This document shows, one piece after another, positions 25,654-64,000 of a DNA stretch of 64,000 nt. This DNA is from Bispira polyomma (lineage: Eukaryota): positions 13,082,001 through 13,146,000 of the forward strand of contig OZ287752.1 in assembly GCA_965649765.1 (NCBI GenBank). Direction: 5' to 3'. Below the pieces are notes generated by a model. The model saw nothing but the letters and a program-made list of their open reading frames with translations. It was not told the DNA's origin and did no database searches. The stretch's first letter is position 1. The number at the start of each line of letters is the position of its first letter. A program made the translations under genes and the position numbers.

Positions 25654-25724
25654 TCACTTCTTAAAGCAACACCAACAGTGTTAGTAAAAATAATATGGTA
25701 TGACACAGTGAAAATGCATATGAA

Positions 25725-39400: not shown

Positions 39401-39440
39401 CCAAGTCATCCCCATATAACAGCAATAAAGGCTCCGATAG
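36420..39440. repeat. Diverged direct repeat of ~0.7 kb (about 36420-37080 vs 38720-39440)
   Basis: Shared collinear blocks such as ttcactct.tttacacatacag, attagggtttct, aagtgttgttc..cctatttggct and aaccaagtcatccc. Confidence 0.65.
37791..38050 (+). mobile_element. tRNA-derived SINE (family A)
   Basis: GGGGGCCGCGGTGGCCTAGTGG head; TSD ctccata(t/c)aaaga. Confidence 0.88.
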
Positions 39441-40252
39441 GTACCCCCATAAATATTATTAAATTTTACGTCAATTCCTTGAAATAGGAAACTGTTAGTA
39501 CGGCAGACTTTTTTATTTAAAAATAAAATGTGAGGTTGTTTAATGAATGCCGGAAGAACTCTGTGGGGTGTGTTTTAGTGAATCCAGCTATCTGTGAACT
39601 ATTTTCCGAAAAAAATTTCCTTTAGTTCCCAGGAATAGTTTTTTTCTTGTAGTCGCAAGAGTTAGGAAGAAGTACTTATGCTTCATTGAGCTTTATGTCA
39701 CATGTGTAATCAACTGACCACACTTGCTAAAAAATAACATTGTGGTTGCCAAAGGTGACCCTTTCGGAAAAAGAAATTGTCGGTGACCAAATCACTGGTG
39801 CTGATACTGACAGTGACGAAATAAAATGCATTTTATTTCAGACACCTATAATCCTCCTATTGACAGTAATATTGCGACTGTCAATTTGTAAACAATGTTG
39901 CATAATTCCCTCACTGGACAAAATAAAGGCATCAGAAATAACAGGTGAATAGCTTCTTAATATCTGTGTGTGTTGTGTTGATATAAGTTATCATATATGT
40001 TGTCTGATGATATATTCTATTAATATGTAACAGTTTAGATATATTTATGTGTTGGGTTTTCTTCATTGAATTCTGTATTATTGTCTAGTTTTAATGTCAG
40101 TTTTGTTTTTTAAAGTATATTTTTTTTTAAATGTGCCCAATTTCTGCTCTCTTCAAACTATTTAATGGACTTGTCTGGAGAGTTTTTTTTAAATAATTGT
40201 TATAGTGTGTAAAGAATTATGCAATTATCTACCTGTATTGGACTATTGGAGT

Positions 40253-40451
40253 CAGGAATCTAAAATTCGCCGCTGTAGCTGTAATTTAAGACAAATTAAT
40301 AAAAACTGGCGAAAAAAATAACTGGAACTTAGGTAATTAAGGCGAAATAGTCACAAAAATCTCAATATCAGCAATTATTACCCACAATTCGACCTAAAAC
40401 ACATTTTCTAGGTGGCGAATTTGAGATAGAGTGGCGAATTTTAGATTCCTT
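40253..40451. mobile_element. Small MITE (hAT-like CAGG terminus)
   Basis: TIRs caggaatctaaaattcgcc / ggcgaattttagattcct. Confidence 0.55.
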
Positions 40452-41049
40452 GGATAATTGCATAGTCAGAAATACAGTCTATAAATTTATTTTTTGAAAA
40501 TTCCAGAAAGAAAACTCTTTAACAAAAATAAAATCGCAAAATTATCCCTATACAGTTTAACAGGGGGAAAACTTTTGGCCCACTTTGAATGAAGTGACCC
40601 TCAACACCTGTTCAGCCTACCATACCGTCCATATGTGAATGGGGCATAAGCCAGTGTTGTAACCCATTAGGCCTATACATATAATGGCTTGGATGACCAT
40701 TGAGCCATGTGCCAGCTAGTGGTAGACTAAAGAACCTTAAGCATGACTTGATAAATACTGTAAACAACAGAAATTACTTGGCTCTGCTGTAAACTTATAA
40801 AGAGGCTTGCTGCTGCTGGGATTTGATAATGGGCTGTCATGGATCTTGAGAATAATAGTCCAGTACATTAACAGTTGATCTTAATGGGAAACTACATAAG
40901 CCAGAGTGTTTAACGCGCTGATATACATGAATATTACATGCCTCTTCAAACATCAGAATCAATCAGCCAATAGAAAAATGAAAAAAACATAGTCAGGTCG
41001 TAAGGATGGATGCATCAGCGATGGATGCATCAGCGCCCAGGACTACTGC

Positions 41050-41540
41050 GGATAGGCGAGCCTGAAGAGATAGGTTTTAAGCCTTTTCCTAAAACCAGAA
41101 AGTGTATTGAGCAGTCTGAGTTCAACTGGAAGACTGTTCCATAACATACGGGCGGCGACCGAGAAGGCTCTAAATCCAACCCTCTTGGTGGGTTTTTTAG
41201 AGGAAACAGAGAATCTCTTTTTCCTCTTTTAAGGTTGCTGAAGGAGAGCTTAGTAGCGAGGCTCTTGAGAGAGGCTTTAAAAATGGTTACGTGCATTTTA
41301 AACAGGATTCAATATTGAATAGGAAGCCAGTGAAGTTTCTTGAGGTATGGAGTGACATCAGTACGGATATCCAAACAAAAGATGACTCTACATAGATAGT
41401 TTTGAATGGCCTGTAACTTATTCATGTGGGACTTATTGGCTATATACAGAAGAGAATTACAGTAGTCAAGGCGGCTACGTACAAGAGCGTTGGCTAAAGT
41501 GAAAGTGATAGCAGTATCTAGTGACAGATGGATCTTGAGA
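41050..41540 (-). mobile_element. Degenerate L2 3' fragment
   Basis: HLSLDTAIT..LANALVRSRLDYCNSLL...LHWLPI, related to the 4987-7062 family. Confidence 0.8.
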
Positions 41541-41742
41541 TAAATAGTCCAGTACACTAACAGTTTAGGTAAAGGGGAAACCACAGAAGCCAGAGTGTTT
41601 ATTGCGCTGATATACACGGATATTACAATACCGTTGTCCCCATATAACGCCTATTGTTGAGGACTGAATCCATTTTACCCCTGTGTGTATCGGCAAGCAG
41701 TTTCCTTTTTTTTTCTTTAACTTCCTTCAACAATAGCAAATT

Positions 41743-41980
41743 TTGAATTTGAATTTGGATATTAAACGTCCACTCTAGTACCTTTTAGTAGGTTATATTG
41801 GGACGGGTAGTTGGAAACGCTGGAGGAAACACTGCATACAGTTGGTCAAGGTTCTGCACTGAAACCAGCGGCCCACAGTAAGGAACTACTACCTTTCCCA
41901 CATAGGTATCGACCGGATTCGATTTCATGCCGCCCAGAGGTGAGAGACCAGTGATTGTGAACCACTAGGCCACTGCGGCC
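41743..41980 (-). mobile_element. tRNA-derived SINE (family A)
   Basis: Reverse complement of the 37791 copy; TSD caatagcaaatt. Confidence 0.85.
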
Positions 41981-42849
41981 AATAGCAAATTGTTAGTACA
42001 GCAGACAACTTTGTTTTAAATAAAATTATACTTGAGGCTTTTTATTTAATGCTGAAAGTATAGTATAATCTGAAGTGGTGTGTGTTTTAGTAACTCCAGC
42101 TATCTGTGTAACCTATAACCCAAAGAATAATTCCCTTCAGTTAATACATTGCATTTACATTTTACATTTATTTACTAAATAATACTTCTTTTTGGGCCAC
42201 CTACCTTTTATAAGGTTTAACTTATACATTTTGGTGATCACACTGCTTCATTTAAGGTGACCTTAAATTAATCTGGTTGACAGAAATAAGCTAAATTTAA
42301 AGTAAAAATTTAAACTCAATGTAAGTCAACCTCAAATTGAAAACTTAACGTAACCTTAAAATGAACATTACTTCATTTAGGTTGATCTTAAACTCAGGTA
42401 TGGTGACCTTAAAAGAAATCTGTCAAAAGATCTTAGAACTAACTTAGATAATAAACTAATATACCCCATATGCTTTCATCACTGGCTTTCAAGGGCAAAA
42501 GTAAACAAGGTTACGGGAGAGGCACTGTTCACTTAAGAGTCAAAAGTGTTAAGTATGTTTAACTCCTGATTGGTTGTTCAGTGCCGCAGTTATAGTATAA
42601 TAAAAAAAAAACTCTTGGCTGCAATATTATTTTATTACACATCAGTGTTCTTAAATAACACAACAAATATTTGTTGTATATTAAATATACATACTATTTT
42701 ACAGTTTCTTTTTTTGTATATGAAATACACAGCAATTCACAAAATACAATTTATGGCTCTTTTAACAAAAAATATGGCTTTTTAGGTCATGGCTTTGTTT
42801 TTAATTAAACTACCTACTACCACATAATAACACATTTTCTTGTATATAA

Positions 42850-43480
42850 AGCCCTGGTCACATTGACTTCGTTCGAGTTTACGTTCATTTCATTTTTTTA
42901 TTTTGAAAAATGTAGCAATTGGAAATAAACAAAGTGAAATTCTGGAAATGTAACAAAACATCAACGTACAGGCCATTTTGTACACGTTCTAGACATGTTT
43001 GTACATGCATTTAATACATTTTTGTAGACATTTTAATTATGTTTGTATTGTCAGTCATGTTTCTAAACACATTAGCCACATTTCTAAATAAGCTAGCCAC
43101 GTTTTTAAAAATGTTTCAGTTTCGTTCTCTCCCGTCACCATCGTAAATAGGTTGCATTCGCTTCATCTATGTCTTTGACGTTTCTGGTTATTATTTGGAT
43201 GTATAATATGTCTTACTGGCATCCTTTACATTTATATGCGCATTGAAGACATGTTATACGCAAACACACCGCCAGTTTTAGTAGAGATCGTCAAATATGC
43301 CACAAACATGCTTACATTTCGTGCAGCACGAAATCATAAAATTAAGGGACCATATCACTTACGTATAGATACATTCATGTATGCATACTTCATCCACTAT
43401 GGAAAACTTTCACCTTTTATTTGCTATTTTTAGCCATTTTTTTAGGGAAATCAAAATGTAAGCCTAGTGTGACCAGGGCC
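42850..43480. mobile_element. PIF/Harbinger-type MITE
   Basis: TIRs agccctggtcaca / tgtgaccagggcc, TAA TSD, no ORF. Confidence 0.8.
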
Positions 43481-44206
43481 TAAAATACAAATAAAAAATG
43501 CAGAATTTCAAAACATGATTATGGCTTTTACAAAAGGAATGGACTGCAGTTGTAAGGACAACTACAATCTAGACACATATAAAATATAATTACATATCAA
43601 AAGAATAACAATAATATCAATGTAAACAAAACATGTAAACAAAAAAATGTAAACAAAACAATATATACAAGGCTAGAAGTAAGTTATGGCTTTTACACAA
43701 TATATATGGCTGTTTGTTTGGAAAGACTATCTAGAATAGATAATATACATGTCACTATAATAAAATACAAAAAAAAATTTAAAAAACATATAACATAGAA
43801 AGAAAGAACAAGCAGAATAATACAAATGTAAACAATCAATGTAAAAAAAAAAAAAAAAAAACATATGACTTGTTTAAATGACTAGAATATCATAATGTAA
43901 CTAAAACAAACTTTTTAAAAAATCCTAATTAAATGAATTTGTTGTCAACAAAAACCACCAGCACAAACCAAACAATATACAGTAAGTGCAATAAAACAAA
44001 ACAAAAATCCTCATATATAAATAAAAAACAGTTTTATATTATAAAATCTACAACAATATATTAAAATACAACTCAGCAACCCTTGCATGACATTAGAGCT
44101 GAGTAATGTCCAGTGTTCTCATGTGATAAGTTTTTTTAGTTTGTGCCACAGTTTATATCCCCTGGTTGGTGGTGGTCAGGGATATCAAGGTCATCATGAC
44201 TAAAGC

Positions 44207-47200
44207 TTAGGACTCTGGGCCGACCCTGCATAGTGAGAGATATACAAATACAGTGTTCAAAAAAAAAAAAAACATATGCATGTGTAGCTGACCGAATGCA
44301 GGCCTGGCCGTTGATATTTATCTTGACCATTTCAAGATAATGGTCTGACTGTTTGTGGACCTACCAAAAATTATTTTTAATAGTTTACTTGTAACATTTA
44401 TTGCTCGGTGAGTGTGTGCAAACTTTTATTACAGTGAATGTACTTATAATTAAATTTTGATATCTCCATAATAAATGAATATTTAATAAATTTAGTACAT
44501 AATACCTTGAATTCAGAATTCTAGATAGCAAATGACAATTACAACCACCTTCCCCTTTTTACTCCTCCATTTCAAAAACTTCATTTCATTGTGGTACGTA
44601 CCTCTTCTTACTTTGTGCCTCTTTCACTATGTGGCTTAAAGTTGATGTTATTAGTTCCACCAATGGGTACCTACTAGGTATGTAGTTACTTTACTTAGTA
44701 TATCACTGTTGTGTCAATTTCTAAACCTAACTGGGCCAGTCCCTTGCCAGTTTTTAATGCCCCAAATTGATGATGCCAGGCATCTTCTAAACGCAACATC
44801 ATTGATAAGTTGTTAAAAATGTAGTCTGTTTCAAATGCATATTCGTGATCGTGAGTTGTATACTTAACTTACTAGTCATATATTTACGTTGTGTTTGGAC
44901 TAGACGGGGCTAGTCCCTTTCTATCGTATTTTTGTTCTTTTTTTAGTTATCACTTCTGTATGCCCGCCTATATGTGGGTTTCGTTACTATCTTTATGTTG
45001 ACTCTGGTGGTTATTTTAAAATTGTACTATCTTTACTATCTTTCAAATTAACCTACTTGGTTCATACAAATTTTGTAAATACTGTACATATATACTAATA
45101 TTGTGTGCAAAAATAAATCTGCCAATTTCTATCTTTTTATTATCTTTAAGGTTTTATTGATAATAATCTATTGATCTGGTTATCTTGTTTTTGAAATCTT
45201 GGTACTAGAAGTTGAAAAATTAATTGAATTCATTAGCAACAAAATAACTACTTTGTAGATGCCTCTATAAAATATGATTGTCATTGTTCTTAACTTGTTT
45301 AAGTGTGAGATCTATACTGTCTTTTTTTTTTACTTGATTCATTTTTTATGTGCAATGTGTTTAATCTCATACATGTGTATTGATGATGATCAATGCTATG
45401 TTTTTAATACTATTTTATCAAGTTATAATAATGCGTGTTTAATATTGATCTGGTCTACAATTTTGTATGTTTTTATGATACACTATATCTATTGTAGAAA
45501 AAGAATACATATACAACTGACCGCTTGATTTGGCAGCAGGTCAGGCAGGCGGCTCCGGGGCCCGTGCAGTAGATCTGCCCCCCACAGCAGCCCGGTGTCG
45601 CCACTGGGTTGGTGCTGTAGTTGCAGCACTTGTCAGCCAGTCTGTGGTGGCAGCAGCAGCAGAGGATCAGAGTCAGGGCAAGAACCAGCAATACTACACT
45701 CTGCAGAAGCGCCACGAGTTCTGGTGGGAAAAACAAGTTAATAGCAGTAAAGATACCGTTACATTTTTAGTAATTTTTAACTCATAAATATATGTTTTAG
45801 AATAGTTATTGCAATAAATCAGTAAACACTTATAACATTTTTTTTTTTTCATTTTTTTATTCTCAATTTTTTTTTCAGGTTTCAATTCATTTAGTCACTC
45901 TTTTTCACAAATATAGTAGGTCTATTTTTGTTACAATTATATGAACCACATTCATGTCTTAGTGTATTGATACAGTTTCACATCATCTGTATGAATGTAT
46001 TGAATAGAAAAATATAAATTGGAATAAAATAAAGTAATGGTTATTTAAAAAAAACTAGGTGTTCAGCTTAAATGAATTGTATGTGAAATACTTGTTGGTT
46101 TATATCTTCTAAAAGACAAGCTTTTTAAAGTCATAGATTATGTTATTTTTTTGGAAAAAAATATTTTATCAACTGCAAAAGAGTAAATAATCAGAATCTC
46201 CTATTTTTTTCAAATTAATTTGCATACTAAAAACAAATAGTAAATATTATTTTAACATATAAAGAGCTACAAAATTGTGTAAGTAAAGACCACCCTGTAC
46301 ACGTCATACTTTAAAAGTGTTTGATCACAAACTAAGACTGAGGTGACGGAAAAAGTTAAATCCATGACTAATTTACATGGTGTTATTGCATCAATATCAA
46401 AATATCAGAAACCACTTCATCCATCTCAGTTTTCTTGCAATAAAAATTCTCTAAATTTGTTTTCGGATCCATCCAAGTGTGTTGTTCGGTCAACATTACC
46501 GCCCAGGATTATGGCACTATTTGCTGACAAAGTGTTGCTTGTGCAAGGACTACACTTTTAAATACAGTGAAACTTGTATATCATGAAGGGAATGCTTGAA
46601 AACGGTCTCATCTAGGTGAGGTCTAGGTGTTTCTATGGAGCTGAATGTCGTGCTATAAACTTGTGATATGAGGCCTGTAATATGTCCAAACCGTCTCTCC
46701 TATAAAGGTCAAGTATTGCTATTTGGAAAAATTTAGGCAGTCTCCTGTCACACAACATAAGAGTGGTATTTCAACACAGACTATTTGTTGTAGGAAAATT
46801 CATGGGATGATTTCAAAAGTGGTCTTTAGGTAGGAATGGTCATTTTCTGAGAGTGGTGGTCACTAGTACAGGTTTGACCGTATCTGAGATAATCCATAGC
46901 GCTTTGGGTCCCTCATTTTGGGAAACCTCTGTGGTGTTGTGAGCACGAATCTTGACCCTGGTGTGTGTGGATGTGGCAAAGTTGACAGTAGACACTTGCT
47001 GAAGGCCAGTAGTTTGCCAAGCAAGAAACAGCTGGACTCCAATTGACTCTGTTCTAATTTCTGGCCAGGGGTGAACTGCGCACCGTGATATATATATATA
47101 TATATGATGCAATACGTGTAGAAAGTGATGTTTTAAGGCTCCAACTTATCTAATCTAATACAGCAACAAATGATAGCAAAGCATAACATATTATTAAACT

Positions 47201-50200
47201 AGCAGTATTATGAACGCCTGTGTGATAACCTTACCCATTGTGACCTAAGGTGGCCCTACTAGTAGTCATTTATAAACACCTGTTTCTCACAATCACTGGT
47301 TTCTTCTACCATTGAATCTAGCTGTCATGATATGACATACGTTGTTAAAGGCAACGTAAAACAACAACTAAAGTAAATTTCTTCTGGGAGGGACCACTAT
47401 GTGACCTAATGGTTAGAAGTGCCTGGTTCACAATCACGAGTCTCTCTAACCAGCATTGGTTCAAATCCCTGTCTTCCCTTCATGTGGAGAAGTTTGCTAG
47501 CTACTTGCCGTAGGGTTCGTGGTTTACAGTGGCGCTTCTTCCACCATTGAATCTGGCTGTCGTGACACACCCTAAGCTACCGAAGGTGGCGTGAAAAACC
47601 CAGCTGGATTGTAAATTACTTGTGTACAACTAACATAGATGTTGAGTTTTGACTTATGTTCATACCTATGAGCAGGGCTCTATTCCATGTCTGTCCTGGA
47701 AAGTAGAATACACATAAAAAAAACACATTTATATAAAATCATAAAAACAGCAATATAACTTCTTTTTTTTTTATTTAGGCAATTTTTACCAAAAATACAA
47801 TACAATACAATACACAAACAAAAAACATTATAGAATTACTCAATAGAAAAACAAACAAAAAAAAAACAATAATACAAACAAACACGCACTTGCCTACATG
47901 ATACAATTATTGTTAAGACACTGTGACGTTAAATATATTTAATACTATTTATATTTCAGAAATAATCTTCTGTTTATTTGGCCATATAACTTTCATCTTT
48001 ACTTTCTTTACTTGATCATTGATATCAGCTAAACCTTACAGAAACATTTTACAGTCCTTCCAATAGGGTTCTTTATTATTTATTTCACAATCATGTATGA
48101 AGTTTTTAAAGTACCTAATAGAACAATTAAATTCGTTTTCATAGCTAATATAATTTTGATTTTTAAGTCCAAAACCTAGAATTATATCCCTTTTATCCTC
48201 TCATATGCTGCACTCAAGTTATGGAATGACCAACCACAATGTATTAGATGCTCACCTTCTAATTAACATTTAAAAGCAAGCTGAAGACCTATCTTTATCA
48301 AAAAACCATATCCCACCTGACATGGTCTTACTATCACCAACTCCCTCTCTGGAAACTCTCTAGGTTGCGAATTTTAGATTTCTTATTATATACTTTATAA
48401 TCATATATACCTGCTGTTTTATACAACCTAATTATGGGGAGTAAAGGGCTTTACAGAAAAATTGGAAATAATATAATAAAAAACAATTACATAGACTACT
48501 GCCGGCCTGCACGACACTACACCACACAGCAATTGGCCTTGGGATACCAAAACCAAATCACAAATACCAAAACATAGCTCTTTGTTGAGTGTTTTGTCCT
48601 GATGAGGGCAAAAAAAGGTATGCTGGACAGAAATTTGAAGTACATCCAGTGTACAATTTCTAGGGCCCCCTTTTCTAAAGGTTACAAAAAAAAAAAAAAA
48701 AAATTGGCCTTCGGAGAAAACTATAAAAAAACTGTTGCATCGTTAGGTTACCCCATGTAGTATTTAGCAAAATCATTAGGATTGTGTAGTGTTATGCCGT
48801 GATTGATGTGAATAGTACTGTGGTGCTGTGACGTGTTGTCCCCTGTACTGTGGTGCAGTGTAGTGTCGTGTAGGCGGGGGTTGTAAAGGCCTTTAGAACT
48901 GTACACCTACCTTCAGTGGTGCCTGTGGTATGCACTGCAGTGACATCACAGTTTGTGGTGGTGGTGACTATGGGACTGGAAGCGGTATCTACTTCAGTGC
49001 TCGTTGAGGGGTCTGTAGGTCCAACCGTTGTAGTCGTCGTAGTCGTAGTCGTCGCACTGTTGCCTGCTTGGTATAGATAAAGTAAAAAAAAGAAGGTTGA
49101 ACTTTGTAACAGTGTGTTATAACTGAGTAAAGGTTAATTAGCTCATTAAACACTCAGGATTCATGTGTTTCCCCTTTAGCTCAACTGTTAGCATACTAGA
49201 ATAATAACATGCCATGACAACCCAGGCGCAAATCCAGGCAGTGGTAAGCCTTTTGAAAAGTTTTTCAGCAGAGCGGAGTCATTTATGTTGTTTACATGGT
49301 GGAGAAAAATTGGAAATAATATAATAAAAAACAATTACATAGACTACTGCCGGCCTGCACGACACTACACCACACAACAATTGGCCTTGGGAGACCAAAA
49401 CCAAATCACAAATACCAAAACATAGCTCTTTGTTGAGTGTTTTGTCATGATGAGGGCAAAAAAAGGTATGCTGGACAGAAATTTGAAGTACATCCAGTGT
49501 ACAATTTCTAGGGCCCCCTTTTCTAAAGGTTACAAAAAAAAAAAAAAAAAAATTGGCCTTCGGAGAAAACTATAAAAAACACTGTTGCATCGTTAGGTTA
49601 CCCCATGTAGTATTTAGCAAAATCATTAGGATTGTGTAGTGTTATGCCGTGATTGATGTGAATAGTACTGCGGTGCTGTGACGTGTTGTCCCCTGTACTG
49701 TGGTGCAGTGTAGTGTCGTGTAGGCGGGGGTTGTAAAGGCCTTTAGAACTGTACACCTACCTTCAGTGGTGCCTGTGGTATGCACTGCAGTGACATCACT
49801 GTTTGTGGTTGTGGTGACTATGGGACTGGAAGCGGTATCTACTTCAGTGCTCGTTGAGGGGTCTGTAGGTCCAACCGTTGTAGTCGTCGTAGTCGTCGCA
49901 CTGTTGCCTGCTTGGTATAGATAAAGTAAAAAAAAGAAGGTTGAACTTTGTAACAGTGTGTTATAACTGAGTAAAGGTTAATTAGCTCATTAAACACTCA
50001 GGATTCATGTGTTTCCCCTTTAGCTCAACTGTTAGCATACTAGAATAATAACATGCCATGACAACCCAGGCGCAAATCCAGGCAGTGGTAAGCCTTTTGA
50101 AAAGTTTTTCAGCAGAGCGGAGTCATTTATGTTGTTTACATGGTGGAGAAAAATTGGAAATAATATAATAAAAAACAATTACATAGACTACTGCTGGCCT

Positions 50201-53200
50201 GCACGACACTACACCACACAACAATTGGCCTTGGGAGACCAAAACCAAATCACAAATACCAAAACATAGCTCTTTGTTGAGTGTTTTGTCATGATGAGGG
50301 CAAAAAAAGGTATGCTGGACAGAAATTTGAAGTACATCCAGTGTACAATTTCTAGGGCCCCCTTTTCTAAAGGTTACAAAAAAAAAAAAAAAAAAATTGG
50401 CCTTCGGAGAAAACTATAAAAAACACTGTTGCATCGTTAGGTTACCCCATGTAGTATTTAGCAAAATCATTAGGATTGTGTAGTGTTATGCCGTGATTGA
50501 TGTGAATAGTACTGCGGTGCTGTGACGTGTTGTCCCCTGTACTGTGGTGCAGTGTAGTGTCGTGTAGGCGGGGGTTGTAAAGGCCTTTAGAACTGTACAC
50601 CTACCTTCAGTGGTGCCTGTGGTATGCACTGCAGTGACATCACTGTTTGTGGTTGTGGTGACTATGGGACTGGAAGCGGTATCTACTTCAGTGCTCGTTG
50701 AGGGGTCTGTAGGTCCAACCGTTGTAGTCGTCGTAGTCGTCGCACTGTTGCCTGCTTGGTATAGATAAAGTAAAAAAAAAGAAGGTTGAACTTTGTAACA
50801 GTGTGTTATAACTGAGTAAAGGTTAATTAGCTCATTAAACACTCAGGATTCATGTGTTTCCCCTTTAGCTCAACTGTTAGCATACTAGAATAATAACATG
50901 CCATGACAACCCAGGCGCAAATCCAGGCAGTGGTAAGCCTTTTGAAAAGTTTTTCAGCAGAGCGGAGTCATTTATGTTGTTTACATGGTGGAGGAAAATT
51001 GGAAATAATATAATAAAAAACAATTACATAGACTACTGCCGGCCTGCATGACACCACACCACACAGCAATTGGCCTTGGGATACCAAAACCAAATCACAA
51101 ATACCAAAACATAGCTCTTTGTTGAGTGTTTTGTCATGATGAGGGCAAAAAAAAGGTATGCTGGACAGAAATTTGAAGTACATCCAGTGTACAATTTCTA
51201 GGGCCCCCTTTTCTAAAGGTTACAAAAAAAATTTAAAAAAAAAATTGGCCTTCGGAGAAAACTAAAAAAAACTGTTGCATCGTTAGGTTACCCCATGAAG
51301 TATTTAGCAAAATCATTAGGATTGTGTAGTGTTATGCCGTGATTGATGTGAATAGTACTGCGGTGCTGTGACGTGTTGTCCCCTGTACTGTGGTGCAGTG
51401 TAGTGTCGTGTAGGCGGGGGTTGTAAAGGCCTTTAGAACTGTACACCTACCTTCAGTGGTGCCTGTGGTGTGCACTGTGGTGACATCACTGTTTGTGGTT
51501 GTGGTGACTATGGGAGTGGAAGCGGTATCTACTTCAGTGCTCGTTGAGGGGTCTGTAGGTCCAACCGTTGTAGTCGTCGTAGTCGTCGCACTGTTGCCTG
51601 CTTGGTATAGATAAAGTAAAAAAAAAGAAGGTTGAACTTTGTAACAGTGTGTTATAACTGAGTAAAGGTTAATTAGCTCATTAAACACTCAGGATTCATG
51701 TGTTTCCCCTTTAGCTCAACTGTTAGCATACTAGAATAATAACATGCCATGACAACCCAGGCGCAAATCCAGGCAGTGGTAAGCCTTTTGAAAAGTTTTT
51801 CAGCAGAGCGGAGTCATTTATGTTGTTTACATGGTGGAGAAAAATTGGAAATAATATAATAAAAAACAATTACATAGACTACTGCCGGCCTGCACGACAC
51901 TACACCACACAACAATTGGCCTTGGGATACCAAAACTAAATCACAAATACCAAAACATAGCTCTTTGTTGAGTGTTTTGTCATGATGAGGGCAAAAAAAA
52001 GGTATGCTGGACAGAAATTTGAAGTACATCCAGTGTACAATTTCTAGGGCCCCCTTTTCTAAAGGTTACAAAAAAAAAAAAAAAAAAATTGGCCTTCGGA
52101 GAAAACTATAAAAAAAACTGTTGCATCGTTAGGTTACCCCATGTAGTATTTAGCAAAATCATTAGGATTGTGTAGTGTTATGCCGTGATTGATGTGAATA
52201 GTACTGCGGTGCTGTGACGTGTTGTCTCCTGTACTGTGGTGCAGTGTAGTGTCGTGTAGGCGGGGGTTGTAAAGGCCTTTAGAACTGTACACCTACCTTC
52301 AGTGGTGCCTGTGGTGTGCACTGTGGTGACATCACTGTTTGTGGTTGTGGTGACTATGGGAGTGGAAGCGGTATCTACTTCACTGCTCGTTGAGGGGTCT
52401 GTAGGTCCAACCGTTGTAGTCGTCGTAGTCGTAGCACTGTTGCCTGCTTGGTATAGATAAAGTAAAAAAAAAGAAGGTTGAACTTTGTAACAGTGTGTTA
52501 TAACTGAGTAAAGGTTAATTAGCTCATTAAACACTCAGGATTCATGTGTTTCCCCTTTAGCTCAACTGTTAGCATACTAGAATAATAACATGCCATGACA
52601 ACCCAGGCGCAAATCCAGGCAGTGGTAAGCCTTTTGAAAAGTTTTTCAGCAGAGCGGAGTCATTTATGTTGTTTACATGGTGGAGAAAAATTGGAAATAA
52701 TATAATAAAAAACAATTACATAGACTACTGCCGGCCTGCACGACACTACACCACACAACAATTGGCCTTGGGATACCAAAACCAAATCACAAATACCAAA
52801 ACATAGCTCTTTGTTGAGTGTTTTGTCATGATGAGGGCAAAAAAAGGTATGCTGGACAGAAATTTGAAGTACATCCAGTGTACAATTTCTAGGGCCCCCT
52901 TTTCTAAAGGTTACAAAAAAAAAAAAAAAAAAATTGGCCTTCGGAGAAAACTATAAAAAAAACTGTTGCATCGTTAGGTTACCCCATGAAGTATTTAGCA
53001 AAATCATTAGGATTGTGTAGTGTTATGCCGTGATTGATGTGAATAGTACTGCGGTGCTGTGACGTGTTGTCCCCTGTACTGTGGTGCAGTGTAGTGTCGT
53101 GTAGGCGGGGGTTGTAAAGGCCTTTAGAACTGTACACCTACCTTCAGTGGTGCCTGTGGTGTGCACTGTGGTGACATCACTGTTTGTGGTTGTGGTGACT

Positions 53201-56200
53201 ATGGGACTGGAAGCGGTATCTACTTCAGTGCTCGTTGAGGGGTCTGTAGGTCCAACCGTTGTAGTCGTCGTAGTCGTAGTCGTCGCACTGTTGCCTGCTT
53301 GGTATAGATAAAGCAAAAAAAAATAAGGTTGAACTTTGTAACAGTGTGTTATAACTGAGTAAAGGTTAATTAGCTCATTAAACACTCAGTATTCATGTGT
53401 TTCCCCTTTAGCTCAACTGTTAGCATACTAGAATAATAACATGCCATGACAACCCAGGCGCAAATCCAGGCAGTGGTAAGCCTTTTGAAAAGTTTTTCAG
53501 CAGAGCGGAGTCATTTATGTTGTTTACATGGTGGAGAAAAATTGGAAATAATATAATAAAAAACAATTACATAGACTACTGCCGGCCTGCACGACACTAC
53601 ACCACACAGCAATTGGCCTTGAGATACCAAAACCAAATCACAAATACCAAAACATAGCTCTTTGTTGAGTGTTTTGTCATGATGAGGGCAAAAAAAGGTA
53701 TGCTGGACAGAAATTTGAAGTACATCCAGTGTACAATTTCTAGGGCCCCCTTTTCTAAAGGTTACAAAAAAAAAAAAAAAAAAAAATTGGCCTTCGGAGA
53801 AAACTATAAAAAAAACTGTTGCATCGTTAGGTTACCCCATGTAGTATTTAGCAAAATCATTAGGATTGTGTAGTGTTATGCCGTGATTGATGTGAATAGT
53901 ACTGCGGTGCTGTGACGTGTTGTCCCCTGTACTGTGGTGCAGTGTAGTGTCGTGTAGGCGGGGGTGGTAAAGGCCTTTAGAACTGTACACCTACCTTCAG
54001 TGGTGCCTGTGGTGTGCACTGTGGTGACATCACTGTTTGTGGTTGTGGTGACTATGGGAGTGGAAGCGGTATCTACTTCAGTGCTCGTTGAGGGGTCTGT
54101 AGGTCCAACCGTTGTAGTCGTCGTAGTCGTAGTCGTCGCACTGTTGCCTGCTTGGTATAGATAAAGTAAAAAAAAAGAAGGTTGAACTTTGTAACAGTGT
54201 GTTATAACTGAGTAAAGGTTAATTAGCTCATTAAACACTCAGTATTCATGTGTTTCCCCTTTAGCTCAACTGTTAGCATACTAGAATAATAACATGCCAT
54301 GACAACCCAGGCGCAAATCCAGGCAGTGGTAAGCCTTTTGAAAAGTTTTTCAGCAGAGCGGAGTCATTTATGTTGTTTACATGGTGGAGATCAGCAGAAA
54401 AATCCCCCCTCTCATAAGCCAAGCAAGTTAGTAGAGTTAACGTGGTAGTAGTATAAAACCTGAGGACAGGTCTTTGCAAGGGAGTGGCATCGAATATCCG
54501 TGTATATCAGCGCATTAAACACTCAGGCTTCTGGGTTTCCCCTTTAGCACAACTGTTAGTCAACAAGACTATTAATCTCAAGATCCATGACAACCCAGGA
54601 TCAAATCCCAGCAGTAACAAGTCTCTTTATATGTTTACAGCAGAGCCAAGTTATTTCTGTTGTTTATAATTGTACCAAAAAGCATCACACTTTTGGAAAT
54701 CGATTGAGATCGCTGAATCAAGACAAATTCAAATACAGCGCATATTAGATTTACAGTTCATATAATTTTGTTTGGAATAGCCTGTCAGAGTGATGATATA
54801 AGTTTTGATAATAATTATAACTACTTAACTATTCTGTTAAAGGGTGAATGGTGTTTTAAAACAATAGAAAAAGTAAAAAACAAAACAAATATTTTTCTTT
54901 GAAATAAAAACATGAATTAAAACAATATGTGTAACCTCTAACAAAAATGTGACTCTACAAAACACACAAAACATTTTGGATGGGGATCGAATTCTACAAA
55001 GTCCTTCATGTGAGAAAGTTCTTCATGTGCTTGCCGTCGGTTGGTGGTTTACAGTGCTCAAGCACTGGTTTCCCCCACCACTGATCCCAAATAAATTGGA
55101 AATTTGAAAGTATATATCGATTTCTTAATTTGGTATTTAGAGCAGCTAATTAACCCTTTCGTGACTGTTAATGTTAATGTTAATATTTTTACTTCTATAA
55201 CGCCACAATCGATGACCAAGCATCCTCTGTGGCGCATATCCTATTAAGTATGCAATCTAATCTAATCTAATCTAGTCGTACTTTTATAGCGCTTAATCTT
55301 TGTACAACAAATTCTAAGGCGCAACAAACCCAAAACGTTAATCGAAAATCAAAAATAGTGGGCGGATGGAAGTCGTAACCAGGGAGACTACCGTAAATGG
55401 TTGCGACAGCTAAGGTGGAAAAGCCTATTCAAAAAGATAGGCCTTCAGCTTACTCCTGAAAGAGGAGAAAGTTTGAGCCAGGTGAACATGATCAGGTAGG
55501 TTGTTCCAAATGAGGGGGCCATCATGAGCTAGGCAGTGATTGAACTGAACTTTGGATTTGTGGATGCGAGGGTCAAAAGTGGGAATGTTAAGGTATAATT
55601 TATCAGGGTTACTGCGCCTTGTCCTGACTGAGCATGTATATTTGGATAGATGGGGGCTAAAATAAGTGGGTAATCCAGAATTTAGAAATTTATATATTAT
55701 TGTTGCTGTTTTGAAAGCAACACGATATGTTATTGGGAGCCAGTGCAGTGACTTGAGTACAGGAGTAATGTGGGAAAATTTAGAAGTTTTGGTCACAATA
55801 CGTGCCAATGAGTGTTGGATATTCTGAAGGCGTCTGAGATCACTACGAGATAAGGAACGGAACAGAGAGTTGCAGTAATCAAGCCTGCTGCTGACCAAAG
55901 CATTGGCAACAGTGATTGCAGTGGATTTGGAAAGATAGCGTCGAATCCGCCTGAAATCACGGAGGCCAACAAAACATGATCTACACACCAATGCGACATG
56001 GTTAGAAAAGGAGAATTCAGAGTCGAACACCACACCCAGGTTTCGTACTTTGTCAGCTGGAAAAAACCTGCTGCCAAGAATGTCAAGTGGAAAACAGCTG
56101 GACAATTTTTCCCGTTGCGACTTGGAGCCAAACAAAATAAACTCAGTCTTCTCAGGGTTCAGCTTGAGTTTATTTGCTGCCATCCAGTGTTGTACATCAA

Positions 56201-59200
56201 CAAGGCAGTTCTGTAAGGAAGTGAAAGCTGCCTGGGCAGAGGCAGGTGTAAGGTGGATGTACAGTTGGGTATCATCAGCATAGAAGTGAAAGTTTATGTT
56301 TTTGTATACAGCAATAATCTTGCTGAGTGAAGTGGTGTACATGGAAAACAAAATGGGACCCAGGACGGAACCTTGGGGAACACCAAATTTTAACCATGTT
56401 GGGTCGGATAAGATATTGCCAATTTTGACTGATTGGAATCTATCAGACAAATATGCCGTGAACCACTTAAGCGCCATACCGCTGATACCGAACCAAGACG
56501 ATAGGCACCCAAGAAGAACTTTGTGATCAATAGTATCAAAGCCTGCTGACAGATCCAGCAGTACTAAGGCAGTAGGCATACCTTTGGATAAAGATGTATG
56601 AACATCATTTTTGATGCAGAGAAGTGCAGTCTCAGTAGAATGGCCACTTTTATACGCTGACTGATACTTATTGGACAGATTGCTGACGTCAACATGTTGT
56701 TTGATCTGTAAGGCAACCGCGCGTTCTACCAACTTAGAGATATAGCAAAGGCCTGAGACAGGACGGTAATTTTTCAAGTCAGCCTTTGGAAGAGAAGGTT
56801 TTTTTATTAAAGAAGTGACAATGGCCTTTTTAAAATCATCTGGAAAGACCCCATTTATCAACGAGAGGTTGATAAGTTTTGTGATTGAGGGCAATAAAAT
56901 GTCAATACATTCTTTGACAAGGAATGTGGGCCACGGATCTAGCAAGCAAGATTTTACGGGTGATGCTAGTATAATTTTTCTGACTTCATCAACAGTTACT
57001 GTGGAGAAACAGTTGAAGACGGTTGGTGGGGCTGTTGGTAAAGGGGCATTTGGGGCAGCTAATGTAAAACCGTCACGGATTCTGGTAATTTTATCAGTGA
57101 AAAAAGTACTAAAAATGTTTGCCAGTGATTTGCTATTGGAATTTTCGGGTAGTATAGTCTGTTTTTTACGGTGGAGGGTGCTATTTAGTTTTTGCCAAAG
57201 TTTCTTCGGGTCACCCTCGCTTTGTGATATCATGTTGGCATAGTAGGCACGTTTTGAGTCATTTATAGTGTTGTTGCACCGGGTGATCCATTGGCGTAGT
57301 CTAGATCTATTTGTAGTAGTATGCAAGAGCATAGTGCAGTAGACGGAAAAAGATGAAAAAAGGTCGTGATCAGAGAATCAGTCGTGACCATCGTGACCAT
57401 CAGACGCAAGCTAGGGTAGAAAAGTGAGCTGATACAGATGTGTTTTAAGCCTTTTTGTGAAACCCATGATGCTCGTCTCAGTCCGAAGACTGGTAGGGAG
57501 GCTATTCCACTTAGCAGGTGCTGCAACTAAGAATGATTTTGAACCAGCTTGTTTTTTTTGGCAGGAAACCATAGGTAGAGAGACAATTGCCTTTGATGAG
57601 ATTGCTGAGAGACAGCATAGACTGTGACAGTTTTTGTTGTGACCTTGCCAGGGCGGGAGGAGTCTGGTGGGGCTCAGGTTGCTGTCAGGTCCAAAACAGA
57701 TTAGAAGAGAAAGTATTATAGTTACCATAAATATGAGCTTTATTCGCACGTAAGAAATACACACACAAAATGTTGTAATTTCCCGCCCGAGCTTCTGGCA
57801 TAGGCAGAACTTGCTTTATCTAATGAGGGAGGATAGCTGCTGAGTAAGATCTATATTTAGAGATGATAAATGTCTCACTGATGATTCTAGGAGAAAGGTA
57901 ATTAATGTTGTCCCTATGTTTGGGGGGTTGTTGACCAGTGCAATACCTGACAACACAGTCAACTGCATCAGTTACTGTCCTTTATCCCTAACTGAAGAAG
58001 AGAGAGGCTTGAGAAAGTCACCATTTACCAACGTCTCGCAAGGACCTATAGCCTGCTGCCACTGGGGAATAGGGACCGTGCGTGAAAGAGGACTTCCCCC
58101 ATTTTATGTGGTGTCATCCAAGCGACTAGGCACATGGGCATGTATACACATCTTGCCCCAAGGATGTTATACCAAAGAATAAGGTACAATAAAGAAATGT
58201 AAACTACAATACAATGTATGTGTGAAAAAAAGGTTCTCTGGCAAATATAAGTTTACAAGAAAACTGGATCGAACAAGCATAGTAAAAGCAGAATTACCCA
58301 TTAGAGATTCTTCTTATGAATGCAAAATTGATGAAAAGCTGGGCCAAAATTTTGGCAAAAGTTGTATGAAAATGTTTAAATGAAAACAAAATACGTCTCC
58401 ATACTATATATGTATATAGTTCAATTTGTTTGCTTTTTGTCAAAGCAAATATAATATAAATAATATAATGCATATGTTAGAATTGCTGTGTCATAGAGCC
58501 AGTAATGACTTAATATTTTATGTATTGTGTAGTCTAATTTTGTATTGTCTTTTGTCTCAAACAAAATAATGAATAAAAAAAAAGTTTATCTTCTCATATA
58601 TTTTTTGGCAATCTGCTCTATTTTAAGCTGTTACCTATAGAGAATTAGCTTCGAAACCATGTTTAGAAATGTATAACAAAATTGGGTTTTATGTACCAGA
58701 ATATTGTGTTTACGATTGATATGTTATATTAGCCACACGTTTCTGTGTGGAATTATTATGTAAAACCTGACACTAAAAGCTTGCAAATTCCTGGTAACTA
58801 CTACAGTTTTCATACGCATTTTTACAGGCGCCAGAACCACAAAAACACATAATTATTACGTCACAGTGGATAATACAAAGTTTTGATGGTCAGATCAAGT
58901 CATAAATATTACATGTGGTTTAGAGAATAACCCATGATAAGCCAAGGACATATTGTGCTCCAAACCATTGGCAGTAATGTTGTTTACAATTAATTGTTTG
59001 GCAGAATGGAAACAGCCAACTTTGATCTTGGACTTTTAAGTCTAATTGTCAGTGTGTGTTATGGTTGAATAAAACTTTCTCATTAAATGAGTATCTTCAT
59101 TAAAAATTGGGAAAATGCCGTCAGGCCCGAAAGTCATACTCAGCTGACCAAGGGTTCATATATCCCAGCATGACCCTCACAAACAGCTTATATTATGTTT

Positions 59201-62200
59201 ATTATACCAAAGCATTTTTTAGGATTTTTAATAAAGATACTCTACGTAAGTGAAATGGCCTGCTGCAGTGATATGGGGCCCCCCTATATCACATTTCATG
59301 TTATGTCACGTGATTGCACTTTAACCAGTAGGATTACTGGATTCGCCGCAAAGGTATAATTATTTAAATTATATTGCTATACTGTGTGGGGAACAACTTA
59401 ACTCTTTGTGCTGTTCCGACGCTGTAGTATCAACCACCAGATCGCTGTCTTTTACGGCCAAGTGGATTATAAAATACACTATATGTGTGTTAAAAAAGAT
59501 ACTCTGTAGTAGAAACAAGCCTACTTGGCGCGGGAGTGTCCCTGTTGCAAAGTCCGGCCGCAACCGTGGCCTCGGTGCTGTGTAGGTTGGCATAGTCATT
59601 GTACAGGAAGTAGTTCTGGCCCAGCACCCGGGGGTCAGAGGTCAGCTGCTGTATCTCATCCACGTCAACCGCCGAGGTCACTCCTATCACCAGCATGTCG
59701 ATGCCGGCGTTGTGTATGTCCTCGGCCTTTTGGATGGCGCTAGAAAAAGGTAGAAATACCATGAATGGATTTGTCAAGGCAAAAGCAAGACGTATTCATG
59801 CTCAAATCATGGTGAGAATGGTAATGCTTCTAATCACAAGGCAGTGCGTCTAACCACTAGCCAACTACATCTTTTTGTTACTTTTTTATACAAACAAACC
59901 ATTGCTAATACAGTACAGTAAACTCCCTTTTAAGTTGAACGAGAAGTCAAATTCCATTTGATGTAAAGAAATATCTGTATTCCGTCCAACAAAATCTACC
60001 CTTTGTTAAGGGAAAACCCTGCTTAAGTAGAGGTATTTATCCTGGTCCTTTGAGGATCAACTTGAAAGGGTTCAACTGAAATTAGGGGGGTGGGGGGGGT
60101 CTCTGTGCTGAAAAGGTAAGACTCTGGCTTCTCACCTCTGCAGGCGTGGGTTCCAACTGCTTGCCAACACAGACACAGGTTCTAGGAGTAACAAATACCC
60201 TCGGCTGAGACAGATATAACTAGACCTAGCGCATTGGAGAATCCTAGGTAGGAAGCACCCAAGCTGTGGCTACCCTCGTCTGACCTTAAAGGAGGGGTCC
60301 AAGGTCAAATCTGAACACAGCAGAAGATTCTCAGCCCATGATTACCTATAAGTTGGTTTCACATTGAAAACCTATAGGACCAATAATAAGCGAGTTATAA
60401 GCTCATTAAGTTTGGCTATTGTCATTTGACCTCGAAGAAGGGGCACAAGGTCAAACTTCACTACATCAGAAGACTCCCAGCCTACAAATTCATATAGGTT
60501 GCTTTTACATCTCAAAACTGTAGGACCAATAATAAGCGAGTTTTAAGCACTTTTAGGTTTAACTACCCTCGTCTGACCTTGACAGAGGGGCCCAAGGTCA
60601 AATCTGACGACATCAGACGAGTCCTAGCCCATGATTACCTATAAGTTGGTTTTACATTGAAAACCTCTAGGACCAATAATTAGCGAGTTATAAACACTTT
60701 TAAGTTTGGTTATCCTCGAAATGACCTTGAAGGAGGGGACCAAGGTCAAACTTGACCTCATCAGAAGATTCATAGCCCATGATTTCATATAGGTTGGCTT
60801 CACATACCAAACTTTTAGGACCAATAATAAGGGAGATATAGGCACTTTTAAAGTCAGCTATGTGGGGTACTTTAGCACTCTGTGGATGACGTTGAATGAA
60901 GAGCTTTAAGGTCAAATGTCTGCATGGTTGTAGAGGACATATATATGTGTTATACATATCACCTATGAAGATTTTCAACCTTCTAGTTACGAGAACCAGC
61001 CAGTAGAAAAAGATAGATTGTTTTCAAAGAAATGCCTATGGCGGCCATCTTGTTTTTCAGAATGAGGCTAATTTCAGTGGTAGAGATGCTTACCTCCAAA
61101 TGAAGATATCCTGCAAATTTGGCTAAGCTAGATGGTCTAGTTTTTCGCTGAGAGTGTTAACGGTAAAAATCTCTCTACGGCCGCAACGACGGTGGCAGCG
61201 GCAGCGTAGCGAATGCTAAACCAAAGTATCCATCTCGGTGGATACAATAAACTACTGTGAACGGCTGTATATACCTTGTTTTATCCGCAGATGGCCCCGC
61301 CATAAGAAGTATGATGACATTGGGATTGGTACTCTTGTCATTGGAGCGGGGACTTTTGAGGTAGTAATCCAGGACCAGGGCTGTGTCCCTCCCGACCACA
61401 CCTAGGTAACTATAAAATAATATGATAAAATAGATTTTTAAACGTGGTTCATTGATGCCAGGCATGTTCTAAAGCACAACATCATCAACAAGGTTGCCAA
61501 AATCCTAGTTTGGGATGGGGGGGGGGGGGGGGGGGGTGATGTAAAGGAGAAAGATGTCTATGGATGGTAAGTGAGGGTGGGTCTTAAGGTTGCTTCTGAA
61601 ACATTTGGGGGTTTCCTGGTATCTTATATTGGCCCAATACATTGTTCTGTTATTGGCTTCATGTCAGTTTAGTTGCAACATTGAAACTGTGTGGACAGAG
61701 GCACATCTGTCGGATACAGACAAATAAACATACTTTATTAGAAGTATACTGCTGTGTATATAGACATTCAACCAACAGACCTGAGTAGTGTACAGCTACC
61801 ATGTTAGTTTACATGACAATACTTTACTGTGTCAGTTTGTGGCCGGTTGATCAAAAATGCCAACATTTTTGAGAGCTCCCGACACCTCATTGATGCATGT
61901 ATGTAAGACCTGAGAGCCCGGAAAAGTCGAACAAGGACCTCATTTGGAGTCACGCACCTGAGCTAACCCATAGTTTACATGAGTTGTGCCACACTCTCAG
62001 GAATTAGACAGAGATAAGTGCAACCAACACAGAGGGGATTTATCGAGAGCTGTGCAATTTACCTTCGCTTTGCATAATGTGGGTGTTTAATATTTTCAAG
62101 TATATCTTATTTAGTGTAAAACAATATAATACATTATTCTTTGCAATTTGCATTGTACGATGCTATGTATTTCTGCTCCCCATAGGTATCACAATCGCAA

Positions 62201-62508
62201 ATAGTGCAGCGCCTTCGTGTGTATAGAGACTTTTTTATATTATAATTTAATTATAAGAGGGACCTAATTACAATAACAACTCACACATGTTATTAAAATT
62301 TAAAAAAAAATCATATTTGTGGAGACATGGACATGACATTGCATAAACTCGGCTTAATGTGTGTGAGGGTAATTTAATTGGACAATGTTGGCTACAGAAC
62401 CCCAATTTACCGCATGTCGTCTAGTGCAGTCTGGCATCTTCTACTTGACGTTAGGTAATTGCCACTTGGGAGGAAGCTCGAGTGATACTGGATGAAGTTG
62501 ACCCTGGT
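44207..62508 (-). CDS. vWA - mucin-like stalk - TM - Cys-rich tail membrane protein, gene B (5' end outside the window)
   Basis: In-phase exons: 62411-62508, 61275-61409 and 59525-59739 (vWA); seven Thr-rich exons 53995-54147, 53142-53294, 52297-52443, 51451-51597, 50605-50751, 49761-49907 and 48911-49063; micro-exon 47666-47695 (GQTWNRALLI); TM/Cys exon 45522-45720; last exon 44207-44225 (RVGPES*). No stops or frameshifts were seen. Confidence 0.8.
48456..54389. repeat. Tandem array of seven ~847-bp exon+intron units
   Basis: Units start at ~48456, 49304, 50148, 50993, 51839, 52685 and 53536. They differ by scattered SNPs and by poly-A and Thr-codon length changes. Confidence 0.97.
55256..57325 (-). 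mobile_element. 5'-truncated L2/CR1-group LINE with an open RT ORF (55425-57332) and (TTAGA)n tail, intronic in gene B
   Basis: NYRPVSGL, LLDLSAGFDTIDH, GVPQGSVLGP, FYADDTQ; tctaatctaatctaatcta at 55256. Confidence 0.95.
57330..57560 (-). mobile_element. 3' fragment of a different L2-like LINE
   Basis: SFLVAAPAKWNSLPTSLR...FTKRLKTHLY...P*. Confidence 0.7.
60190..61250 (+). mobile_element. Non-autonomous modular element (HINE/pearl-like) with four ~147-bp internal tandem repeats and a 3' hairpin
   Basis: tgacct..aaggtcaaa units at 60281, 60427, 60574 and 60722; a GC-rich microsatellite-like tract at ~61176-61210; hairpin gtatcca-tctcgg-tggatac at 61226-61245. The family assignment is inferred. 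Confidence 0.65.
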
Positions 62509-63214
62509 CTGAAAGTATGATAGAAAACAACTAGCAAACAATTTTCAAATGTGAATTTAGTTGCGTCGCTTTCAAAAACAGCAGTTTTATTGTGGCGGCA
62601 GTCAGAAATTAATGGTGCAAAAAGACCAGGGCTAAAGCCACTGTCTAAACCACCAACTGACAGATTTACGAATCTTACAGAAGGTAATTAGAAATAAATA
62701 ACTATCCATATAAGTCTGACTTATGGCAAAAAAACTGTCAAACTTTCCTGCACGAAATAAATAAATGGCGATTCCAACCCACATTGGTGAGAAGCCAGTA
62801 ATTTATGAGCAAAGCGCTCCTGTCTACCAGGCCGCCGTGGCCCATAACATGCCAATGGTGTTATTTCTCTTAAAGTAGATACTAGTTTAGGTTTAATCTT
62901 AAAAACGTAGCACGAAAACTCTCTAGTGTCTACTGCCAACTTCCTCACAACCACACCCATACCAGGACTGAGGCTCCAAAAATTCACACAAATCAAGATA
63001 TAAGAGGCGAGTGTTTTACCTACTAAACACACCCCTGATCACAAAGGTTCTACAGTAAATTCATGCAAAAAAATAAATAAGTAATGAATATTTTTCTACT
63101 TGTAATTTGCATTTTGAACGTGCCTTATGAATTTGAGGCATTTGCTTAATACAACAACAGAATCTATTAACTATTCAAGATATCCCCCAAACATAGCCAA
63201 GTTTAGAAACTAAA

Positions 63215-63835
63215 GGGGATAAGCGAGTTTGAAGAGATAGGTTTTAAGCCGTTTTCTTAACCGAGAGAGTGTTTCAACTGAACTATGCTCAACTGGAAGA
63301 CCATACTCCTGAGAACACACACAGAGAAACACAGCAACACACAGAGAAACAAATCTAGATCCAGCCCTGTTGGTAGGTTTTATAGGAACAGTTGGTTATA
63401 TAGGAACAGAAAGTCTATTTCAACCTCTCTTAAGGTTGCATGAAGGAAAGGCGAGCAGTAAGATAGAAGGGGCTGTTGAGAGAGATAACAGCTTCACAAA
63501 AGAGTGTTTACGTAGATAATCAAACCAAATGCGATAGTCAATAGGAAGCCAATGGTAATTCAGTCTTATCTAATCAATTCCACAATGGCACTTAATCTTT
63601 GTACTAGCAGATTCTAAGGCACAAAAAATCATGTAATCATGTTATGGTGGACGGAAAAGGAGGTCATTACTAGGGAGGGAGTCGGTGATGGTGAGAAAAT
63701 GTGAGGAGGGATAAGCTTTTCATAGAGATGGGTCTTGGGCCTGCTTCTAAAATTAAAAGAGGTGAGTATCTAATATCTTATGGTAGGTCATTACATAACT
63801 TGGGTGCAGTGTATCAGAAACTACGATTGAATAAT
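63215..63835 (-). mobile_element. Two adjacent degenerate L2 3' fragments
   Basis: HWLPIDYRI...LRKRLKTYLF and APKLCNDLP...FRSRPKTHL remnants. Confidence 0.65.
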
Positions 63836-64000
63836 TTGTTAGGATTACCACAACAGGCATTGACTTGCTGAGAGTCAGGGGTACTCACAAACAAACACTC
63901 ACTAAACAACACTGCTACTCACTGTTGAAAAGCTAATCTGCAAGTTTGGCACAAGCACGAGATTGTAGAAGAACTGCTTTACCAGAGTGTCATTTGGTTG

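Follow-up and report, generated by a model that had tools for sequence, protein, structure and literature searches.

A seven-unit exon-plus-intron array in the predicted stalk region of a VWA-family gene of Bispira polyomma

The stretch analysed here, referred to as the window, comprises 64,000 nucleotides of the Bispira polyomma assembly GCA_965649765.1 (contig OZ287752.1, hereafter C5, positions 13,082,001 to 13,146,000 of the forward strand). Its minus strand harbours a gene for a predicted membrane protein with a VWA head, and a tandem array of seven exon-plus-intron units is located after the last VWA exon of this gene and before the exon encoding the transmembrane helix (Table 1). An earlier note, prepared from the letters of the window, had proposed the recent amplification of a whole cassette of about 847 bp. 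This proposal has been strengthened by the discovery of a one-unit twin of the gene on another contig (C13), by the monophyly of the units, whose introns differ by 0.9% from one another against about 2.6% from the twin, and by multi-copy depth in public sequencing runs.

Table 1. Features of the window discussed in the text (window coordinates)
Feature	Position	Strand	Remarks
Left half of tyrosine-recombinase retroelement split by the block	23653..25412	plus	Phage_int_SAM_1 E=6.7e-5, weak RVT_1
Circularly permuted copy of C13:3277672-3331103	25413..64000		runs to window-equivalent 71534
Closing junction of the permuted block	30542..30594		53-bp filler matching a dispersed repeat
Second VWA-family paralog	31341..35760	minus	one S/T-rich phase 1-1 stalk exon (31502-31341)
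Exon with predicted transmembrane helix and Cys-rich tail	45522..45720	minus	start phase 1
Tandem array of seven exon-plus-intron units	48456..54389	minus	units of 844-854 bp; supported by sequence and by public runs (several-fold depth, contig across the junction)
Stalk exon candidate U7	48911..49063	minus	153 nt; one Ser-to-Cys change
Stalk exon candidate U6	49761..49907	minus	147 nt; unit identical to U5 unit except one substitution
Stalk exon candidate U5	50605..50751	minus	147 nt
Stalk exon candidate U4	51451..51597	minus	147 nt
Stalk exon candidate U3	52297..52443	minus	147 nt
Stalk exon candidate U2	53142..53294	minus	153 nt
Stalk exon candidate U1	53995..54147	minus	153 nt; Thr/Ser-rich, phase 1-1
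LINE-type reverse-transcriptase fragment in intron 4	55256..57313	minus	RVT_1 E=4e-34; same strand as gene; without counterpart in C13 twin
Host exon 4 (VWA C-terminus)	59525..59739	minus	end phase 1; Pfam VWA E=0.0035, below cut-off; profile matches VWA-like
Host exon 3 (VWA)	61275..61409	minus	phase 2-2; conserved in paralogs
Host exon 2 (VWA)	62411..62508	minus	phase 0-2
Host exon 1, 3' part (predicted signal peptide and VWA start)	63923..64000	minus	exon starts 138 nt outside the window; VWA E=0.13, below cut-off

Seven stalk units and their host gene

The units begin at 48456, 49304, 50148, 50993, 51839, 52685 and 53536 and follow one another head-to-tail. Each contains an open segment bounded by AG and GT, in phase 1-1, that encodes 48–50 Thr/Ser-rich residues; the designation of these segments as exons derives from their sequence and from comparison with paralogs. 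The cassette size and the single phase 1-1 exon of 147 or 153 nt per unit described in the earlier note were recovered in all seven units, as was its distribution of variants: nine Thr in U1, U2 and U7 and seven in U3–U6, ASTP in U1, U3 and U4 and ASSP in U2 and U5–U7, VTTV in U1–U4 and VTAV in U5–U7. The introns, said to be as similar as the exons, are even more alike, with a mean pairwise divergence of 0.9% against 2.3% for the exons. The excess of exonic change is not significant: of 25 variable sites 8 are exonic (of 147) and 17 intronic (Fisher P=0.059), and three of the 8 exonic changes are fully linked. All three linked changes, which define U5–U7, improve a palindrome around CACTGCAGTG (48930-48939, same sites in U5 and U6), and may have arisen by template switching rather than by separate mutations.

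The junction between units shows an overlap of AGA, as the earlier note had reported, with the refinement that a 9-nt match, CAGAAAAAT, occurs a few bases outside the overlap at 48454 and 54395. A common 9-mer is found in 23 of 2000 random pairs of 45-nt flanks. When the Thr-rich exon was used as a query, only the seven units and the C13 twin matched among 40 scored candidates. The block as part of a dispersed repeat was considered and rejected: many genomic copies exist solely for the part 3' of the donor (query 249-351) and for one intronic stretch. Non-allelic recombination between repeat copies was likewise rejected as the first event, as only one breakpoint is inside that repeat.

Mosaic variation along the array had also been suggested, and the recombination test run on the units bears this out in part. 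The four-gamete test fails for nine of the 28 pairs of informative sites, which lends modest support to exchange among units; the signal comes mostly from two or three sites, as failures drop to 6/21 without a homopolymer-adjacent site and to only 1/15 when a second site is also removed. Adjacent units are more similar than distant ones (Mantel test, 214/5040 permutations), and all exon indels among the units and the twin are multiples of three.

Exons 1–4 of the host gene join in frame, encoding a predicted signal peptide and a VWA-like domain, and, like the transmembrane exon, are open with canonical ends. The donor of exon 4 and the acceptor of the transmembrane exon are both in phase 1 and match the phase 1-1 stalk exons. 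With all seven units the predicted stalk would measure 349 residues, of which 191 (55%) are Ser or Thr, between the VWA head and a helix with a mean window hydropathy of 2.85: the layout expected when a type I membrane protein carries a mucin-like stalk rich in proline, threonine and serine. Single-exon scores against the VWA family (PF00092) for exons 4 and 1 both stay below the curated cut-off of 23.8 bits. A profile built from ten paralogous exon-4 translations retrieved 569 proteins, and those inspected are VWA-like; source names among ten exon-4 profile matches looked up include one octopod and one annelid. The head displays DSSSD and MAGPS in place of DxSxS and a TDG-type motif. DxSxS...T...D and the TDG-type motif mark an intact VWA metal site (MIDAS, metal ion-dependent adhesion site); the site looks degenerate here, and metal binding by this head is therefore doubtful.

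Further searches yielded little. Five related genes have a donor at the corresponding position, which implies a further exon after the transmembrane exon; a search downstream did not find it. The Pfam search with the transmembrane and Cys-rich exon gave no match, the ESM Atlas no usable match, and word-index protein searches one relative only. Intron 3 contains four copies of a 147-bp tandem repeat (60267-60851) common to the twin and to a locus ∼20 kb upstream.

The one-unit twin and the depth of public runs

An eighth full copy of the Thr-rich exon resides on C13, in a twin of the whole gene. The twin carries a single unit, whose exon of 150 nt is in frame, and has the unique flanks on both sides. 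Each window unit differs from it at 15–20 of ∼700 intronic positions (about 2.6%) and from the other units at 1–9. In a tree the twin sits on a long branch and the units are monophyletic, with the order of U1–U4 unresolved and U5–U7 grouped (support 91/90, below the starred level). Judged from these sequence comparisons, the one-unit gene is the ancestral state and the seven-unit array is derived.

The coding regions of the two copies have diverged unevenly. In exon 4, 0/162 nonsynonymous and 4/51 synonymous sites have changed. Exons 1–2 differ at 28/310 sites as against 133/4386 outside exons (9% versus 3%, P=1.5e-6); synonymous changes amount to 7/69 and nonsynonymous ones to 20/237, giving a ratio of replacement to silent change (pN/pS) below 1. 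Silent sites are raised as much as replacement sites, and positive selection on the VWA head is not shown. One-sided conversion from the sister paralog is unsupported as well, with 8 changes assigned to the window copy, 13 to the twin and 13 left unpolarised. The excess in exons 1–2 may reflect local diversification or balanced alleles of long standing. The twin is also without 30 nt (window-equivalent 64125-64155) that include the start codon of the window copy, a start that aligns with that of the sister; instead, the twin has an upstream in-frame ATG, which in the window copy opens a frame of seven codons.

An assembly artefact, either one unit expanded or a C13 haplotype misplaced on C5, was weighed with three public runs of the organism (X1, X2 and X3). 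X1 and X3 come from one sample, so that at most two samples of one study are represented, and the runs may stem from the same specimen as the assembly. A fourth run, X4 (another organism, share 0.05), gave only short repeat matches and was excluded from the later depth comparison; none of the four runs is on record as RNA, which carries no information about expression. The mean word depth of unit contigs is 70–76 in X1, 111–119 in X3 and 351–582 in X2, and that of the listed flank contigs with zero differences ∼18, ∼19 and ∼81. The resulting ratios are 3.9–4.2, 5.8–6.2 and 4.3–7.2, respectively, contig depth not being a measure of copy number; seven units as assembled would give a mean 31-mer multiplicity of 4.9–5.4, plus at most 0.4 from the twin. 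One X3 contig crosses the unit-to-unit junction and ends 29 letters beyond it, the expected stop of a graph with k=31.

These depths exclude a single-copy locus inflated by the assembly, the concern raised in the earlier note, and leave the number seven unfixed. U5 and U6 differ at one substitution, so that the count could be off by one, and an origin of the runs in the assembly's own sample would also favour an artefact. Against it stand the 25 variable sites among units, the several-fold depth in 3/3 runs of the organism, the contig across the head-to-tail junction, the coexistence of window-type and twin-type contigs, and a permuted block that splits a retroelement with a small deletion. 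An artefact is largely refuted and retains an almost negligible probability.

Variants of X2 at 46012, 46032, 47464, 47470 and 47627 were considered as a signal of a second individual and rejected, as all match the C13 twin. Over 46552-46833, twin-type depth compares with window-type depth as 8.5 versus 13.8 and 5.9 versus 15.4 (half or less) in one sample (S1), and is near-equal, 69.5 versus 80.4, in the other (S2). The C13 twin may be present on one haplotype only in S1.

Transfer of the block from C13 to C5

The host gene is part of a 46-kb block (25413-71534) that corresponds to C13:3277672-3331103 in two parts whose order is swapped. The outer ends of the C5 copy are adjacent in C13, where the sequence is continuous at 3282591|3282592, and within the copy, at 30541/30595, the ends of the C13 segment are brought together around the 53-bp filler. 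On either side of the copy lies one half of a single retroelement, and in 3/3 intact element copies fetched (of 33 matches) the corresponding halves are 16 nt apart; the picture of the empty site is drawn from these other retroelement copies and not from an orthologous site. C13 continuity and the split retroelement at the C5 flanks identify C13 as the donor and C5 as the recipient. The permuted order points to a move that was likely accomplished through a DNA circle, although template switching can leave the same order. Tyrosine-recombinase retroelements are a class that integrates as circles, and the insertion has landed in a member of this class, perhaps by coincidence.

Other traits of the block deserve mention. 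About 10.6 kb of C13 (3287028-3297662), holding a THAP/transposase-like open reading frame, are without counterpart in the C5 copy at window-equivalent 67509, and a DDE_Tnp_4 transposase remnant (E=1e-39) is found within the moved block at 26257-29500. The second VWA-family paralog of the window has a stop in exon 1 and a frameshift in exon 4 and is thereby broken; the C13 counterpart has neither lesion, and those of its exons that were compared are open. The single stalk exon of the window paralog agrees with the earlier remark that this gene has one Thr-rich exon.

The phase-1 slot and the meaning of the array

The stalk exons occupy a position that has been filled in other ways elsewhere in the family. 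Of the matches to exon 4, eight belong to the C13 cluster and two to the window, with single ones at another place on C5 and on C12; weaker VWA matches came in addition. A sister gene has two Thr-rich exons after exon 4; the last of them shows a donor context near-identical to that of the units and encodes GTTEG followed by GTAGGTGT. In another paralog the slot is filled with four Thr/Pro exons, carried by older cassettes that are 75–82% identical. In two further paralogs the same slot holds 17 and 46 near-identical EGF exons, arranged in exon-plus-intron cassettes of ∼420 bp (C13:3154589-3161529 and 3193949-3213796). Ends are intact in 16/17 and 45/46 of these exons, the exceptions being a broken donor in one case and a shifted exon end in the other, and the exons are less diverged than the introns (5.2 versus 7.4% and 3.1 versus 6.8%). 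The larger EGF array also displays higher-order 419/474-bp patterns. The transmembrane exons of four paralogs (C13:3329200, 3344864, 3363866 and C12:4833049) were not found with the sequence patterns used. On this sequence record, repeated cassette amplification is a habit of the family: the phase-1 slot between the VWA and transmembrane exons tolerates any number of symmetric exons, and stalk exons are amplified there again and again.

The probable course of events, in our view, is that one Thr-rich block, together with the DNA around it, was multiplied into a head-to-tail series of seven units within this predicted VWA-headed gene, and that splicing of all of them would give a stalk about seven times longer. 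A piece of ∼53 kb of the C13 cluster would have circularised, or been copied by template switching, and then been inserted on C5. The first duplication of the unit would have arisen through short homology, not through a long repeat, given the AGA overlap, the nearby 9-nt match and the presence of only one breakpoint in a dispersed repeat. A burst would have produced four to five about equally distant units, with later unequal crossovers giving rise to U5–U7. Inclusion of the exons in the mRNA would raise the VWA head further from the membrane: in-frame splicing of all seven would lengthen the stalk from ∼50 to ∼350 residues, probably O-glycosylated. At ∼0.25 nm per O-glycosylated residue, this corresponds to an extension from ∼12 nm to 85–90 nm if all units are spliced in.

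A number of observations weigh against this course of events. The mucin exons are no more conserved than their own introns, unlike the exons of the EGF arrays, and intact splice sites are uninformative at this age, as 25 substitutions have an 89% chance of missing the four invariant columns. The host copy has gained two odd cysteines (exon 2 and U7), a same-strand LINE (long interspersed nuclear element) fragment resides in intron 4, and the neighbour gene in the moved block has decayed; all three fit relaxed selection. The depth ratios of X1 and X3 disagree (about 4 versus 6) though they represent one sample, contig depth being no copy-number measure, and the 29-letter overlap of the junction-crossing contig falls below the 31-letter bridging rule. 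Divergence of the block from C13 is uneven (1.9–8.9%), so that the array may have existed before the move and a different C13 haplotype may have been the donor. Inclusion of the stalk exons in the mRNA is itself a prediction from gene structure.

The same signs of decay, together with the lack of a conservation excess in the mucin exons and the new unpaired cysteines, would be at home in a neutral scenario, in which the C5 copy decays as a duplicate and carries the array along as an unselected tandem duplication whose exons are skipped or never expressed. Such a scenario is unlikely: every host exon found is open with canonical ends, exon 4 has accumulated synonymous changes only, exon indels preserve the frame throughout, and the same amplification recurs in genes of the family with clear exon constraint. 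The gain in stalk length may be adaptive or merely tolerated.

A different possibility is that the units serve as alternative exons, mutually exclusive or variably included, so that stalk length differs from transcript to transcript, as in oyster bindin (PMC5712786) and SmPoMuc (PMC2576457). This scenario diverges from inclusion of all seven solely at the splicing step. The earlier note had likewise suggested that stalk length may be tunable, by frame-preserving exon skipping and by copy-number polymorphism. Phase 1-1 symmetry keeps any subset in frame, the stalk-exon acceptor is a tandem AAG-CAG, and the precedents described in these two sources lend it plausibility. However, splice signals are near-identical across the units, with no feature singling out one of them, and introns of ∼700 nt pose no steric bar; variable inclusion is judged rather improbable.

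A bolder scheme would view the family as polymorphic receptors for self/non-self or gamete recognition, built as a head plus an adjustable ruler. Exons 1–2 would diversify, the phase-1 slot would be independently refilled (1–7 Thr, 2–4 Thr/Pro or 17–46 EGF exons) to set the distance between head and membrane, whole genes would pass from one chromosome to another as DNA circles, and individuals would segregate for stalk length. The scheme is speculative and more doubtful than not by a wide measure.

The array itself is of a familiar kind, and the rarity implied in the earlier note was overstated, given the published exon-plus-intron mucin cassettes (PMC2576457) and the two larger EGF cassette arrays of the same genome. 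In the SmPoMuc genes of Schistosoma mansoni, exon 2 with its mucin repeat and flanking introns forms units of ∼1 kb in tandems of up to ∼20; the introns are >93% alike, the genes form a multigene cluster, and unequal crossing-over or conversion and concerted evolution are invoked (PMC2576457). The exon there is 27 nt long, microsatellites separate the units, and length polymorphism, variable splicing and glycosylation have been shown (PMC2576457). The likeness resides in the tandem exon-plus-intron mucin units within a multigene cluster, and no homology is claimed. In contrast, the exon here measures 147–153 nt, no microsatellite separator was seen between units, and the gene would encode a VWA-headed type I membrane protein.

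The human LPA KIV-2 variable number tandem repeat is another protein-coding array of genomic units: these are 5.6 kb long, number 1–40 per allele and encode a folded kringle domain, and their polymorphism has been measured (PMC11462820). The units here are 0.85 kb and are known from an assembly and run depth; the EGF arrays of the paralogs are a closer analogue of KIV-2 than the Thr array. The present array shares with both systems its head-to-tail exon-plus-intron units, introns as homogeneous as the exons, and frame-symmetric exons that match their slot. In Pacific oyster bindin, an invertebrate recognition protein, the number of F-lectin repeats is changed by exon duplication, recombination and splicing, and the binding domain is diversifying, according to a review (PMC5712786). 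In bindin the binding domain itself is repeated, whereas the repeat here is a predicted spacer, and no positive selection is shown in exons 1–2 (pN/pS below 1). Introns more homogenised than exons in tandem exon-plus-intron units are known from spider silk and Coccidioides SOWgp, as cited in PMC2576457; these proteins are unrelated, and the exon excess here is not significant and may stem from the three linked changes.

As regards the move, human segmental duplications of 22–3918 kb have been attributed to circular DNA intermediates (Chicote et al. 2020, PMC7450558). In these as in the C5 copy, the block order is flipped, the ends of the donor segment are joined inside the copy, the ends of the copy lie side by side in the donor, the acceptor shows short indels, and the breakpoints fall in non-homologous repeats; the size of the C5 copy lies inside that range. 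The present case concerns an invertebrate, and its closing filler is 53 bp as compared with 1–27 bp in the duplications described by that source.

The value of the locus resides less in a new mechanism than in a natural before-and-after experiment: one assembly holds a one-unit ancestor, a seven-unit derivative, base-resolved breakpoints, a direction of movement and sister genes that amplify EGF exons. It brings two general questions within reach: are symmetric-exon slots enlarged through mutation pressure or through selection on the length of the ectodomain, and can mucin and EGF spacers replace one another as rulers for a single head domain? Narrow literature searches returned no paper on this VWA-stalk gene family, which is weak evidence and does not show absence from print.

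Outside the moved block, the window carries a separate minus-strand cluster of duplicated Ig/FN3 and transmembrane exons (334-23583, with I-set and fn3 matches). It includes an inverted pair of LINE copies of 1.7 kb at 5280-6937 and 7887-9542.

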